Notes: generated by a model from the sequence alone, not told the origin. 31,504 nt of DNA from Miltoncostaeaceae bacterium (GCA_030598075.1 JAUVQP010000001.1:1-31504); one strand, 5' to 3'. Shown: positions 2,315 to 30,853, counted from the stretch's first letter. A program made the numbers and translations.

Positions 2315-3160
2315 ATGATCGTCTCTCGGCGCCCCGAGGGCCTGCTCATCGTCCGTCAGGTCGACCACCAGGTGCAGTGCGGCATGATGGCGGCGGCGTG
2401 GGGCGGTGCCGAGTTCCGCAGGCCGGAGCCCTACGGTCCCGTCCGCGATGCCGCCGCCTGGCACGACGAGGGCTGGCGAGCCTGGGAGACGTGGCCGTCG
2501 ACCGACGAGCGCGGCGCGCCGATCGACTTCCCCGATCTCGACCGGGCGGAGCACGTTCGTCTCTACTCCGAGGGAATTCGGAGGGTCGCGGCTCGCTCGC
2601 CGGCTGCCGGCCTCCTGGTCAGCATGCACGCCCAGGGGCTCTATGAGCGGCGCCTTGGGCTGGATGGGCCGCCGCCCCCGAGGGCAGGACGCAGATGTGA
2701 GATCGGAGCCTTCCTGGCGGGGCAGGAGGCTCTTCAGGCGCGGATCGCGGCTGAGCTCGGCGACGGTCCGCGGCTCCGCTCCTGGGCCTGGGCGGCCTAT
2801 CGGCTGCTGCAGGCCTGGGACCTTCTCAGCCTCTACCTCCTATGGAGGGCGCTGCCCTCCGGGCGTGCCGGGGCGCTTCCGGCCGTCCCGCGCGCGGTGG
2901 GCGACCCGGGAGTCGCGATCGCTCTGACGCCGACGGGCTCGGCCAGTTGCGCCGCGGAGCCGTTTCCATTTCGGGGCGACTCCGTGTCGCTTCCCGCCGC
3001 CGCGCGCCTCATCGACGACCGACCCTACCGCGACGACGCGGACCTTCGGCGAGCGCTCGGCTTGGCCGAGTGCATCGACCTCGACATCGTCGTGCACCGT
3101 GAGGGGCTTGGCAGAGGACCGTCCCGAGACGTGCGAGGACCCTCCGACTCCGGACGCTAG
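2315..3160 (+). CDS. DUF3891-family protein (putative metal-binding HD-like)
   Basis: N-terminal MIVSRRPEGLLIVRQVDHQ..AAAWG, then AAAWHDEGW and SMH patterns typical of DUF3891. Confidence 0.75.
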   Translation: MIVSRRPEGLLIVRQVDHQVQCGMMAAAWGGAEFRRPEPYGPVRDAAAWHDEGWRAWETWPSTDERGAPIDFPDLDRAEHVRLYSEGIRRVAARSPAAGLLVSMHAQGLYERRLGLDGPPPPRAGRRCEIGAFLAGQEALQARIAAELGDGPRLRSWAWAAYRLLQAWDLLSLYLLWRALPSGRAGALPAVPRAVGDPGVAIALTPTGSASCAAEPFPFRGDSVSLPAAARLIDDRPYRDDADLRRALGLAECIDLDIVVHREGLGRGPSRDVRGPSDSGR

Positions 3161-3320
3161 TGCCGTGTCAGGAAACCTTTGCCCCGTTCTTCCTCGCTGC
3201 AAACCATCGCGGATGCGGCGTCCTCGGTCATCGCCATGGGCTCAACCATGGCGATGACGCTGCGTCCTTGCCCCGCGGGGTTTTCGCGGCCAGAACACGC
3301 CATGGTTCCCTGACACGGCA
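3161..3320. mobile_element. 160-bp MITE-like element, copy 1
   Basis: 17-bp TIRs with 1 mismatch (TGCCGTGTCAGGAAACC / GGTTCCCTGACACGGCA), CTAG on both sides (3157-3160, 3321-3324), 157/160 identical to the reverse complement of 29282-29441, no transposase. Confidence 0.9.
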
Positions 3321-3536
3321 CTAGTCGCCCTTCTCGTACTTGAACGACAACGAGAGCCGTGCCCGAAACTGGTCGATGCGACCGTCATCGCCGACCGTGA
3401 CGTCGAGCTTCGCCACCTCGGCGACGCGGAGATCGCGCAGCGATCCGCTCGCCGTGCTGACCGCGTTGTTGGCGGCGTCCTCCCAAGATGTCGAGCTGGT
3501 GCCGATGACGTCGATGACGCGATAGACGCTTCCCAT
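3321..3536 (-). CDS. Dodecin (flavin-binding) family protein
   Basis: 71 aa, SVYRVIDVIGTSSTSWEDAANNAV...LRDLRVAEV...FRARLSLSFKYE; GGGGAG SD upstream. Confidence 0.92.
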   Translation of the reverse strand: MGSVYRVIDVIGTSSTSWEDAANNAVSTASGSLRDLRVAEVAKLDVTVGDDGRIDQFRARLSLSFKYEKGD

Positions 3537-27542: not shown

Positions 27543-28433
27543 ATGGCGAGCTATGTCATCGAGACCGACGGGCTCACCAAGCAATGGGGCGATCTGGTTG
27601 CGGTCAACGAGTTGACCATCGCGATCGAGCGAGGCGAGTGCTACGCCTTCCTCGGTCGCAACGGCTCCGGGAAATCGACGACCGCGCGAATGCTGCTGGA
27701 CTTCATTCGCCCGACGCGCGGGTCCGCGCGCGTGCTCGGAGGGTCGGGCGCGGACCCGGCGGTGCGCGCCCGGGTCGGCTATCTGCCCGGCGATCTCAAC
27801 CTCGCGAGATCGATGACCGGTCGCGACGCGATCGAGTTCTTCGGATCGCTCGGCCCCGCGCCGGATCGGTCGGTGGTCGACTCGCTGGTCGAGCGGTTCG
27901 CTCTCGATCCCTCGCGGCCGGTGCATGAGCTGAGCACGGGCAACCGGCGGAAGGTCGGCCTGGTGCTGGCCTTCATGGGCGACCCGGAGCTGCTCATCCT
28001 CGACGAGCCGACGAGTGGTCTGGACCCCGTGCTCCAAGAGGAGTTCCGTGACCTCGTCGCAGAGAGGAAGGCCGCCGGCGTCACCATTTGGCTCACGTCC
28101 CACGTCATGGCGGAGGTCGAGCGGGTCGCCGATCGCGTGGGGCTCATCGGGGACGGAAAGCTGGCCCGGGAGCTCACGATGGCCGACCTGCGGCGCCAGA
28201 GCACCGGGCGCATCGTGTTCAGCTTCGACGGCCCCCGTCCGGCGTCGGCCTTCTCCGAGCTGCCGGGTGTCACGAGCGCCGAGGCCGAGGGCAGCGACGT
28301 GGCGGTCACCGTCGACGGGTCGACGGCCGCGGTGCTCCGCAAGGCGGGGGAGATGGGGGCGAGCGCCGTCCAGACGGAGCGGCGCGACCTCGACGACATC
28401 TTCCTCGAGCTCTTCGAGCACACGCAGTCATGA
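27543..28433 (+). CDS. ABC transporter ATP-binding protein (ABC-2/drug-export type)
   Basis: GRNGSGKST, LSTGNRRK, LILDEPTSGLDP, LTSH. Confidence 0.95.
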   Translation: MASYVIETDGLTKQWGDLVAVNELTIAIERGECYAFLGRNGSGKSTTARMLLDFIRPTRGSARVLGGSGADPAVRARVGYLPGDLNLARSMTGRDAIEFFGSLGPAPDRSVVDSLVERFALDPSRPVHELSTGNRRKVGLVLAFMGDPELLILDEPTSGLDPVLQEEFRDLVAERKAAGVTIWLTSHVMAEVERVADRVGLIGDGKLARELTMADLRRQSTGRIVFSFDGPRPASAFSELPGVTSAEAEGSDVAVTVDGSTAAVLRKAGEMGASAVQTERRDLDDIFLELFEHTQS

Positions 28434-29281
28434 ACGCCGGCCGCGTGGCCCACATCTATCGGCAGTGGTTTCGGGCCCGGCTTCTCTCCACGATCGCGTG
28501 GGCCGTCGGCCTGATCGCGGTGGTAACGCTGACGGCCGCGTTCTACCCCTCGCTGAAAGACATCTTCAACAACGTCGGGCAGGGCAGCGGCCTCGAGTCC
28601 TTCCTCGGCCTCTCCGGAGCTATCGATCCCTCGTCGCCGCTCGGCTTCCTCTGGTCCAACCTCTACTCCAACATCGTCCCGTGGATCATGATGGCGCTTG
28701 GCATCGCAATCGGTGCCGCGGCCATCGCCGGCGACGAAGAGAAGGGCACGCTCGAGTACCTGCTATCGAGGCCGGCTCAGCGCGCAGAGGTGGTCGTCGC
28801 CCGTTTTGCGGTCCTGCTAACGGTCCTCCTCCTGGTCGCTCTGGTCGTGGGCATCGCTCTCGCCGCGGTGGCCCCGCTGTTCGAGCTGACGACGGCCACC
28901 ACGACGACCGCGGCCGACGGCGCGAGCGTCACCAACCCGGGCGTGTCGGTCGGAGACATCGCGGCCGGCACGTTCGCCGCCCTGGCCGTCGGCATCGGCA
29001 CCGGCTCGATCGCCTTCCTCCTCGGGGCGGCCATCGGTCGGCACGGCGTGGCGGTCGGCGTGACGTCGGGGTACGCGATCGCGGGGTACCTGCTCTACAC
29101 GCTCTCGAACGTCACCGGCAGCCTCGGGTTCCTAACCTGGATCTCACCCTGGCGCTGGTACGTGCACGACGCCATGCTCATCACGGGGCTCGACTGGGAT
29201 GTGCTGCTCCCGTTCGGGCTCGCGACGATCTGCTTTGCCGCAGGCTGGTTTTTCTTCCAGCGGCGAGATCTTCGAAGCTAG
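28430..29281 (+). CDS. ABC-2 type permease
   Basis: About six TM segments, AIAGDEEKGTLEYLLSRPAQR motif; ATGA overlap with ATPase. Confidence 0.9.
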   Translation: MNAGRVAHIYRQWFRARLLSTIAWAVGLIAVVTLTAAFYPSLKDIFNNVGQGSGLESFLGLSGAIDPSSPLGFLWSNLYSNIVPWIMMALGIAIGAAAIAGDEEKGTLEYLLSRPAQRAEVVVARFAVLLTVLLLVALVVGIALAAVAPLFELTTATTTTAADGASVTNPGVSVGDIAAGTFAALAVGIGTGSIAFLLGAAIGRHGVAVGVTSGYAIAGYLLYTLSNVTGSLGFLTWISPWRWYVHDAMLITGLDWDVLLPFGLATICFAAGWFFFQRRDLRS

Positions 29282-29441
29282 TGCCGTGTCAGGGAACCAT
29301 GGCGTGTTCTGGCCGCGAAAACCCCGCGGGGCAAGGACGCAGCGTCATAGCCATGGTTGAGCCCATGGCTATGACCGAGGACACCGCATCCGCGATGGTT
29401 TGCAGCGAGGAAGAACGGGGCAAAGGTTTCCTGACACGGCA
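29282..29441. mobile_element. 160-bp MITE-like element, copy 2 (inverted relative to copy 1)
   Basis: Same TIRs, CTAG at 29278-29281 and 29442-29445; 3 substitutions relative to copy 1. Confidence 0.9.
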
Positions 29442-29725
29442 CTAGGGACGTGCGCGAGCGCCCCCAGCCCCCCTTTGACTTAAGGGCGCATTCCGCTCGG
29501 GGAGCCCCCGCATCGCCGGACGGCCCGGTCGTCCGCGCGGAGCGGGCATCTCATACGCGCCATGGGGCCAGCCCACAACGACAGGCACCGGGGGGGGGTC
29601 GCATTCGCACAGAAGGGAAACGGCGGCGATACCTACAGCGGCTGTCTCACGGAAGGCGGCGGGGGATGTGCACCGTGGGCGCGGTTGACCCCGGCTCCGG
29701 AGCGTCCGACAATGCGGCGATCCTC

Positions 29726-30853
29726 ATGAGACGCGCTGTCTTCATCGGATCGCTGATAGCCAGGGTCGTGGTGGCCGCGGGGTCCGCCGGCGCTGCGGTC
29801 GGCGCCGAGGCGGTCTTCTCCGACCCGAAATGGATCTTCGATCCCGAGGGGAACAACTTCACGCGCGGTGCCTATGCCTGCGGGCTCACCGGTGAGGGGT
29901 GCGCGGACGGGGGCTCCATCGCCGAGCAGGCCACGTACTGGTGCAAGACCCCTCGGATCGACTCAGGACTACTGCCGGACGGCAGCCCGCGCCCCCTGTG
30001 GGTGCGCAACGCCGGCCCCGCGGTGAGCTTCGACAGGTTCGATCCGGCCAGGACGCTCGTCCGCCCGGCCGGGGCCGACGAGCTCTGGAGGGGCCACAAC
30101 CTCGTAAACCTCGACAAGTCGGGAAAGGGCAGCCAGTTCGGCCCGGCGATGGTCTTCTCGCAGATCGTGTGCCTGAGCGACGAGGTCACGGCGGTGCGCG
30201 GCAGCATCTCCATCAACGCTGACAAGGACACCGTCGGACGCGAGACCAGCCGGAACTTCGCAAATGTGCTCGGAGGTGGCTACGTCCCGGTGCACGCGCG
30301 CCTCCTGGGCACCTTCAAGGTCGAGGCGAAGCTACGACAGGCTGGCGATGCCCGGCCGTGGGAGGCGGAGATCAGCGGACTCCGCACGAACGGGGCCAAG
30401 TTCTCCGGCGCCGGCCTGTTCCGGGTGACGCTAAAACGGAAGAAGGATCGGCTGACGGCGGACGAGACCCTGGCGATTCGTTTCAGGGTGGAGCGACGCG
30501 GGCGCCGGGGCCGTGGAGCCAGCCTGGCCCACTTCGCCCTGCGCAAGAAACGGTCCCTGCTCCTTGATTCGCGGTTCGACGGCTGGGCCGTTGTGCAAAT
30601 TCGGGTCACCGGAGGCAACGCTTTCGGCCGTAGCTGCCGCGGGCAGTACGGCCGGCTCCAGGTGTTCGACACCCTGTCGAGCGATGGTGCCCCTGCCCCT
30701 ATCGGGCGCTTACCGCGCCGCGGCGACAGGCGACGCGATATCGACCGCGTCATCATTGCGGTCTGCGGGATCCGCGCTCAGACGTGGACAGCCGAGAGGA
30801 ACTTGCGCGGCCGCAGCCGGGTCAAGTTCTTCGCGACCGGCCTCAGAAGGTAG
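29726..30853 (+). CDS. Hypothetical secreted protein, Cys-containing, basic C-terminal half
   Basis: MRRAVFIGSLIARVVVAAGSAGAAVG signal-like N-terminus; ORF track start at 29450 looks like a non-coding extension. Confidence 0.6.
   Translation: MRRAVFIGSLIARVVVAAGSAGAAVGAEAVFSDPKWIFDPEGNNFTRGAYACGLTGEGCADGGSIAEQATYWCKTPRIDSGLLPDGSPRPLWVRNAGPAVSFDRFDPARTLVRPAGADELWRGHNLVNLDKSGKGSQFGPAMVFSQIVCLSDEVTAVRGSISINADKDTVGRETSRNFANVLGGGYVPVHARLLGTFKVEAKLRQAGDARPWEAEISGLRTNGAKFSGAGLFRVTLKRKKDRLTADETLAIRFRVERRGRRGRGASLAHFALRKKRSLLLDSRFDGWAVVQIRVTGGNAFGRSCRGQYGRLQVFDTLSSDGAPAPIGRLPRRGDRRRDIDRVIIAVCGIRAQTWTAERNLRGRSRVKFFATGLRR

Follow-up and report, generated by a model that had tools for sequence, protein, structure and literature searches.

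The window analysed here, a stretch of 31,504 nucleotides from a Miltoncostaeaceae bacterium (GCA_030598075.1, JAUVQP010000001.1:1-31504; contig C152 of the assembly), contains two inverted copies of a short repeat, and these raise the question of what the repeat is, and whether the fold that it can adopt is maintained by selection, on which strand and at what level. A sequence-only reading had noted that the copies differ at three sites only, all compatible with a folded structure, and had proposed a strand-specific RNA or single-stranded DNA structure under selection on the plus strand of copy 1. The host MAG (Miltoncostaeaceae, class Thermoleophilia) comprises 1.37 Mb in 164 contigs, is 73% complete and has a GC content of 71%; the sequencing runs that contain the stretch are for the most part from marine sediment or seawater.

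The gapless 168-bp alignment of copy 1 (3157-3324, plus strand) with copy 2 (29278-29445, minus strand), the CTAG at each end included, has three mismatches, at 3219 (C in copy 1, T in copy 2), 3232 (C and A, respectively) and 3253 (G and T, respectively), and the report of two inverted copies with three differing sites was thus right. Position 3232 pairs with 3253 in an apical hairpin, as C:G in copy 1 and as A:T in copy 2, and we could verify this compensatory pair within a perfect 13-bp hairpin (3227-3239/3246-3258, loop GCTCAA), as well as a 9-bp outer helix (3211-3219/3259-3267) with two wobbles, T.G at 3214/3264 and G.T at 3217/3261. The change at 3219, which had been read as C-G becoming U-G, has to be reversed: the consensus of the 24-copy family is T, the C of copy 1 is derived, and the step was one from U.G to C-G. 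The claim that the wobbles work only on the plus strand holds for the 9-bp helix and fails for the whole element, for which the RNA minimum free energy is -104.4 kcal/mol on the minus strand versus -96.9 kcal/mol on the plus strand. The features of the element are as follows:

3157-3160: left flanking CTAG, with TA 3158-3159 as the presumed duplicated target
3160-3182, plus strand: left terminal inverted repeat, matching the ends of an IS630-family IS
3183-3193: left spacer arm, whose partners in the long hairpin are 3293-3298 and adjoining bases (from folds and the pair list)
3194-3292: conserved core module, made up of an A-tract, helix, anchor 1, apical hairpin, anchor 2, helix and T-tract
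3211-3219, plus strand: 5' half of the 9-bp helix, partner 3259-3267, with two plus-strand G.T wobbles
3218-3227, plus strand: anchor 1, GCGTCCTCGG, from pattern searches; its GCGTCCT is common to anchor 2
3227-3258: apical hairpin, with 13-bp stem 3227-3239/3246-3258 and loop 3240-3245
3260-3268, plus strand: anchor 2, CTGCGTCCT, from pattern searches
3281-3284, plus strand: TTTT run 3' of the GC-rich core helix, pairing with AAACC 3201-3205
3299-3321, minus strand: right terminal inverted repeat, from alignment and BLAST against the IS
3321-3324: right flanking CTAG, whose complement TAG is the stop of a dodecin gene
29278-29445, minus strand: copy 2 of the MITE, inverted, whose flanking CTAG holds TAG 29279-29281

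The 168-bp repeat is a non-autonomous IS630-type MITE, and its description as MITE-like is upheld by the fact that it is multi-copy and small and has ends matching IS630. An iterated nhmmer search identified 42 MITE loci in the 1.37-Mb MAG, many of them at contig ends; these included ~24 young copies (at least 93% identical; 12 full-length, the others truncated at contig ends) and ~18 older copies with 70-85% identity. In metagenome contigs the summed depth of the element was 30-60x that of its flanks, and flanks of many different sequences start exactly at 3157 and 3324. All full-length young copies have CTAG on both sides, except that in C111, one side of which reads CTCG. An autonomous IS with the same terminal inverted repeats, the search for which the sequence-only reading had suggested, was found in metagenomes as a 1.2-kb IS630-family element with matching ends. 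A transposase fragment from a related genome (L116) ends within an inverted repeat identical to the MITE end, and its use as a metagenome query yielded many full elements of ~1.2 kb; one of these (L173:199-1416) has 23-bp perfect ends starting CTAGTGCCGTGTCAGG, CTAG on either side, and an ORF of 377 aa with the domains HTH_32, HTH_28 and DDE_3. A BLAST match of the MITE consensus to this IS covers 23-26 nt at 91-92% identity at both IS ends; the similarity is confined to the terminal 23-31 bp, and the inner 100 nt of the MITE are not IS-derived. Partial IS copies in two further genomes (G073 and G093) have ends identical to the same terminal sequence, and CTAGTG ends also occur in other IS630-type elements of Miltoncostaeaceae. 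No DDE_3 or DDE_Tnp_1 transposase was found in this MAG (G000, 73% complete), nor any IS630-type transposase (DDE_3) in G008 (97% complete) or G011, both rich in copies; a cognate transposase in the same genome is not a defining feature of MITEs, although it is required for claiming current activity.

Coding explanations of the element were considered and rejected. Its reading frames are open only through high GC, and the frame is lost between subfamilies. A small protein encoded by a 46-codon minus-strand frame that ends in the flanking TAG was discarded, as the subfamilies differ in amino acids as often as their nucleotide differences permit; there are also stops in the subfamily G008b, and a 1-nt indel shifts the frame in IS5-type elements. 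The idea that the minus strand of the MITE corresponds to the sense strand of the transposase was likewise dropped, the IS ends being perfect repeats and both MITE ends matching both IS ends.

IS630 itself prefers CTAG as its target. The CTAG flanks are consistent with the TA target duplication of the IS630 family, the members of which insert at TA, duplicate the TA and use no hairpin intermediate (PMC2170065), bearing in mind that TA and CTAG duplication leave identical filled sites. A clean empty site was not recovered: the orthologous region of G001, a genome of the same genus, is occupied by ~185 nt of unrelated intergenic sequence, and no contig bypassing the element was identified in four metagenome runs. 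CTAG is ~eight-fold rarer than expected in the MAG (433 sites versus 3580 expected), and both copies in the window lie on one that holds a stop codon: copy 1 is located between a DUF3891 gene (2315-3160, plus strand), whose stop is the TAG at 3158-3160 within the left flanking CTAG, and a convergent dodecin gene (3321-3536, minus strand), while the TAG at 29279-29281 in the CTAG flanking copy 2 is the stop of an ABC-2 permease gene (28088-29281, plus strand). Among 149 elements of the family there were 111 cases of an incoming gene, and in 87 of these its stop codon was no more than a few bases away from the end of the element; a single element lay between divergent genes. The MITE usually sits exactly on a TAG stop because it inserts in CTAG, and the duplication preserves the stop. 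The two orientations of the element are both common, with a bias: for elements with an incoming gene on one side only, the plus strand is in the transcript of that gene in 51 cases and the minus strand in 30 in Miltoncostaeaceae (p = 0.026), with 22 and 7 cases, respectively, in other families (p = 0.008), giving a combined 73 plus versus 37 minus (p = 8e-4). In a metatranscriptome run (X18) there were contigs extending over a flanking gene and a fragment of some MITE copy.

With a family at hand, the differences between the two copies can be placed among those of their relatives. The 24 young copies have 42 private substitutions, and the multi-copy comparison of stem and loop change rates, proposed as a check on the sequence-only reading, went against it: paired sites are not depleted in substitutions (35/138, versus 6/22 at unpaired sites), and the central stem alone has 9 in 26 nt. 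Watson-Crick pairs were hit by a single substitution, with the partner covered, 15 times, producing 9 mismatches and 6 one-strand wobbles (4 on the plus strand and 2 on the minus strand), and both sides of a pair were altered in copy 2 alone; no further within-copy double changes were found in the subfamilies of G011 and G008. In a simulation with independent random substitutions at the frequency seen in the family (42 in 3235 nt), 4.7% of trials produced a copy with a compensated Watson-Crick pair anywhere in the element, and 1.2% produced one in the central stem. As proof of selection, a compensated pair from two copies is therefore suggestive, not compelling, and the three inter-copy differences are weak evidence of structure, since 15 uncompensated single hits stand against one compensated pair. 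Given the equal densities and the 15 uncompensated hits, the decay of inserted copies shows no visible constraint. The compensated pair in copy 2 would then be due to chance or to hairpin-templated (template-switch) mutation rather than to selection at that locus; hairpin-templated mutation would yield such a pair in a single step (PMC8794818, PMC7202029).

Comparison between lineages gave another picture of the pairing. The consensuses of three collinear subfamilies (those of this MAG, G011 and G008) differ at 21 of 73 pairs, and 7 of these 21 are double compensatory changes, five of them swaps from G:C to C:G. In an alignment of 40 sequences, 80% of the cells were Watson-Crick, and changes on both sides were seen at 27 of the 73 pairs, versus 13-18 after sliding the partners by 1-3 columns, and the observed pairing values were not reached in any of 300 column shuffles. 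One G008 subfamily has its central stem swapped for an unrelated sequence that still pairs. RNAalifold run on MAFFT alignments gave poor consensus structures because the variable stems were not aligned by pair, and for this reason pairs were counted on our own pair list and from per-sequence folds.

Searches also revealed that the interior of the MITE is not confined to this family of elements. Hits restricted to element positions 37-142 led to elements that have the same inner 100 nt and other ends, and 35 elements with different ends were used for an alignment of this core. Its most conserved part consists of GCGTCCTCGG, the hairpin and CTGCGTCCT; GCGTCCT is present in both anchors as a direct repeat, and the anchors are hence non-complementary and give the core module a polarity. 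A search with the core pattern identified ~190 matches in 40 of 111 Miltoncostaeaceae genomes (~2 for a reversed-pattern control) and ~750 matches in 138 of 401 sampled Thermoleophilia genomes (~25 for the control), with none in the 79 and 24 genomes of two families of the class sample; as this strict pattern recovers well-kept copies only, the anchor conservation is partly built into the search. The 179 distinct apical segments in the sequences analysed have a mean of 10.1 pairs, with stems of 9-13 bp and loops mainly of 3-6 nt, and fold better than their shuffles (median z -3.85; 149 of 179 better than 95% of shuffles), while their pairwise identity is 0.45 and every stem position shows all Watson-Crick types; A/T is enriched 3-5 positions from the apical loop. 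From these sequences the apical hairpin is shown to be free in sequence with its pairing kept. The core is surrounded by diverse ends: there are several IS630-like variants, one of them identical to the ends of an IS in L110, and an IS5-like type starting GAAGGTCTTTCAG, in which TAA duplications flank the element; a 0.9-kb IS (L279) that shares GAAGGTCTTTCAG-type ends encodes DUF4096 and DDE_Tnp_1 in two frames, and more IS5-like ends were identified in other families. The core is thus shown to be a polar conserved module inside MITEs of at least two transposase families, IS630 and IS5. The TTTT run at 3281-3284 is conserved in Miltoncostaeaceae copies and not class-wide, there being no T-run in other families. 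The Rfam scan that had been suggested as a check gave no match for the core: with Rfam 15 the best match of the window copy had an E-value of 0.35, and 12 loci from seven Thermoleophilia families gave no match at E-values up to 0.1.

As it occurs hundreds of times across the class, inside mini-transposons with different transposases, the core looks functional, and it may be a new functional nucleic-acid module of Thermoleophilia, either a structured RNA or a candidate binding site of a conserved factor of the host or of the element, that is read on one strand and carried or captured by different mini-transposons, a proposal for which we see the chances as evenly balanced. The sequence-only proposal of a folded single strand under selection is kept in part: pairing was retained in evolution (27 of 73 pairs changed on both sides; 179 different but paired stems), which makes some selected single-stranded fold likely, and it is selection at each locus that we find unlikely.

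Which strand, then, would be the one that folds? The anchors fix the polarity, with the plus strand of copy 1 as the family-plus strand. For the whole element, the better fold was on the minus strand in 40 of 47 type-A copies (plus in 7), in 132 of the 149 elements of the Miltoncostaeaceae family (plus in 17) and in 54 of 60 elements from six other families (plus in 6; mean difference -18 kcal/mol). When the outer arms were compared across 50 independent end classes, the minus strand was better in 41 and the plus strand in 9 (p = 6e-6; minus in 23 of 26 IS630-like and 6 of 6 IS5-like classes), the arms having ~3 G.U pairs on the minus strand versus <1 on the plus strand. The apical stem is neutral in Miltoncostaeaceae (minus 27, plus 25) and prefers the minus strand in other families (minus 49, plus 7). 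The core helix beside the anchors has the opposite preference (minus 8, plus 45 among 55 elements); this is a conserved part, however, and counts as one event. The plus-strand structure of the sequence-only reading is thereby limited to the 9-bp helix at the core anchors, the minus strand being better for the outer arms, the whole element and the apical stems of other families. A mutational skew from replication or transcription was also considered as the source of the wobble asymmetry and was set aside by reasoning, as the keto-rich strand is opposite to the usual coding or leading strand and copies occur in both orientations.

The overall explanation that we favour, and that we regard as probable, is that of an IS630-type MITE which lands on stop codons and has a polar core, the pairing of which is maintained in spreading lineages. 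Pairing would be maintained in master copies, i.e., in the lineages still spreading, individual inserted copies would decay neutrally, and the core would act as a folded single strand, the preferred strand being the complement of the copy 1 plus strand. More tentatively, and with somewhat less than an even chance in our estimation, the fold and a factor reading the anchors may serve the element's own propagation or persistence; the fold could bring the ends of the 165-bp element together, or let the element be processed as a hairpin. A role at the DNA level in mobilisation would suit the lack of constraint on copies, as well as the sharing of the core across transposases, the sequence-specific anchors and the A/T-rich apex, and it has a precedent in the IHF site proposed for Correia elements (PMC2229807). 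A strand-specific fold has no known role in DDE cut-and-paste transposition, because this uses double-stranded DNA and no hairpin intermediate (PMC2170065). Two observations run against the favoured explanation: the wobbles of the 9-bp helix next to the anchors are on the opposite strand, and the commoner orientation gives the transcript of the upstream gene the weaker-folding strand, contrary to what would be expected of a minus-sense read-through RNA. No single model accounts for all observations.

The main alternative to a role at the level of the element is an effect on the expression of neighbouring genes, a role in RNA 3' ends being ranked second. A plus-strand RNA structure selected at each locus, whether for intrinsic termination, as a site for RNase or to stabilise the 3' end of the abutting gene's transcript, would draw on the location of the element directly 3' of stop codons, and hence its co-transcription, on the commoner orientation (73:37) that places the plus strand in the upstream mRNA, on the plus-strand G.U pairs of the 9-bp core helix, and on the A-tract before and TTTT after this helix in Miltoncostaeaceae, an arrangement like that of a bidirectional terminator; in addition, transcripts of MITEs in bacteria are known to fold and influence adjacent mRNAs (PMC2229807). 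We nevertheless find this unlikely, as paired sites are not spared (15 uncompensated Watson-Crick hits), the other strand folds better for the outer arms, the whole element and the apical stems, the T-tract consists of four T only and is absent as a conserved feature outside Miltoncostaeaceae, and one third of the copies are in the opposite orientation. The suggestion that the element is a terminator was not borne out by a consensus scan of 3000-3500, which identified no intrinsic terminator, the TTTT at 3281-3284 falling below threshold.

The pairing itself could be produced without any function if the element were a palindromic MITE whose arms are kept alike by template switching in quasi-palindromes, the compensatory pair being one such event. 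It is known that a change in one arm of an inverted repeat can be copied to the other, resulting in 'compensatory' pairs (PMC8794818, PMC7202029); five of the seven subfamily double changes swap G:C for C:G, a step for which no wobble intermediate exists, and the decay of inserted copies is unconstrained. Templating, however, makes arms complementary, and would erase the direct-repeat GCGTCCT anchors and cannot keep them; it also leaves unexplained the constant polarity of the wobble asymmetry across 41 of 50 end classes, the orientation bias of 73:37, and the presence of the same core between the ends of two transposase families while stems and ends are at random-level identity, making this quite improbable as the whole explanation. 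We give even less credence to the core being the gene for a small minus-sense RNA (antisense or protein-binding) that is carried by MITEs and is active through a purine-rich internal loop, AGGACGC on both sides of the stem. The accumulation of minus-strand G.U pairs in outer arms, apical stems and whole elements would fit such an RNA, as would the minus-strand anchors, which can be read as two facing purine-rich AGGA-containing stretches, and in having no Rfam match it would be an undescribed one. No promoter-like site was found by consensus scan, though, read-through transcripts are plus-sense in the commoner orientation, and individual copies are unconstrained.

With the stop-codon MITE and its polar core as the preferred explanation, several known systems offer partial counterparts. 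RUP of Streptococcus pneumoniae and other IS630-derived MITEs, e.g., Nezha, are likewise short and non-coding with ends that match an IS630-family IS, and likewise insert at TA, have many dispersed copies and have long stem-loop potential (PMC2229807). The target here differs in being CTAG at stop codons in a 71% GC genome, and the inner 100 nt are not from an IS and are common to other end types, a feature not reported for RUP in PMC2229807. The Correia/NEMIS elements of Neisseria are similar in size (~100-155 bp), in their TA termini and in adjoining genes, their transcripts form hairpins that affect adjacent mRNAs, and a central IHF site in the longer form was proposed to aid transposition (PMC2229807); they have no sequence relation to the present element, in which we recognised no IHF-type site and the central module is instead kept across a whole class and across transposase families.

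Comparable too are the CGTC-tagged REPs (Di Nocera et al. 2013, PMC3733652), which are also short GC-rich palindromes with a variable stem and a conserved unpaired CGTC-containing tag, are located mainly 3' of genes where they often give or abut stops, and have no dedicated transposase known (PMC3733652). In these REPs the 8-9-bp stem opens with A/T pairs immediately next to the tag, the loop has 4-5 nt and there is a CCA tail; they are listed in five phyla, Actinobacteria not among them (PMC3733652). In the core module, CGTC is 6 nt from a stem of 9-13 bp, a second direct copy of CGTC follows the stem, and the unit forms part of larger elements bounded by terminal inverted repeats and target duplications; membership in the CGTC-tagged REP superfamily was therefore rejected, given the CGTC 6 nt off the stem and the mean stem of 10.1 bp. 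REPIN/RAYT systems resemble the present elements in their long, imperfect hairpins at the ends of genes, in strand-specific recognition of single strands and in effects of orientation, whereas the ends and duplications seen here are DDE-type. The Y1 transposase PF01797 was found in none of the module-rich genera (g37, 0/19; g13, 0/7; none in g8, g11 and g1) and is present in g24 and g19, the latter without the module; mobilisation by a RAYT/REP mechanism was excluded by this distribution, which does not track the module.

In sum, the MITE is an ordinary new member of its kind, and what is new is a polar interior that is conserved across end types and across a class, for which we found no description in the papers searched or in Rfam. 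Usually the ends of MITEs are conserved and the inside is free. Here the pattern is inverted: throughout a bacterial class it is the interior that is conserved, and the ends vary, as does even the transposase family. This offers a route to learning what MITE interiors can do for the element or for its host. It also adds a candidate structured element to the poorly studied and mostly uncultured class Thermoleophilia. The case also shows that conclusions drawn from a compensatory pair in just two copies of a repeat can be misleading: with multi-copy and cross-lineage data, the inferred strand was reversed, and selection was placed at the level of the lineage instead of the locus. Finally, these elements provide a clear case of transposons for which stop codons are safe places to insert in a genome of high GC content and, if the proposal of a functional core module is true, that module would account for the tolerance of these elements on stop codons.

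In most of the 179 elements carrying the core module, the central part of the MITE in which two direct GCGTCCT anchors surround an apical hairpin with a variable stem, A/T pairs occupied apical stem positions 3–5 from the loop, against a background of ~70% GC, and at position 4 the pair was TA or AT in ~85% of the elements. In copy 1 this part of the stem lies as follows:

3233-3238/3247-3252: part of the apical stem of copy 1

These A/T pairs near the loop could make the centre of the palindrome easier to melt, or they could offer a TA target for nested insertion. The string GGATGCGGCGT (window 3211-3221) appears also to be present in the Escherichia coli REP consensus, a match that is probably a coincidence.

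Core modules were also seen head-to-tail in three genomes, at G431:C1:705168-705539, G257:C1:4230702-4230915 and G250:C1:403490-403633, with spacings of 161, 165 and 95 bp, respectively; this arrangement suggests either that an element inserted into another's duplicated target or that the modules were amplified in tandem.

A 0.9 kb IS5-family IS with a TAA duplication was identified on contig C12 of the Miltoncostaeaceae genome G093 (L279:51-951), and its transposase spans two overlapping frames, the first matching DUF4096 and the second DDE_Tnp_1, as programmed frameshifting would predict. This IS is likely the partner of the IS5-type MITEs that have the same core module. In addition, a soil metagenome contig (L185:27-1423) holds a full-length IS directly adjoined by a 166-bp pair of its inverted repeats, which are the same as those of the MITE; the pair forms a MITE-like unit beside its likely parent IS.

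Shorter forms were seen in G000, the MAG holding the window: a CTAG-flanked 45-bp mini-element outside the window, consisting only of the two inverted repeats (contig C91, ~2270-2330), and solo left inverted repeats adjoining the 3' ends of ordinary genes (C45:4156, C54:3867 and C131:5255). All four resemble either derivatives produced by deletion or remnants left by excision.

Directly downstream of copy 2, a 467-aa ORF (29450-30853) gave no Pfam match at E ≤ 0.001. In a genome of another genus (L215:1-1700; L069, from contig C44 of the family genome G011), the locus orthologous to that of copy 1 holds only the right half of a MITE, adjoining the dodecin stop, and the intervening 1.5 kb contains a 423-aa coiled-coil-like ORF. 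This arrangement reflects either an old shared insertion or repeated strikes at the same CTAG.
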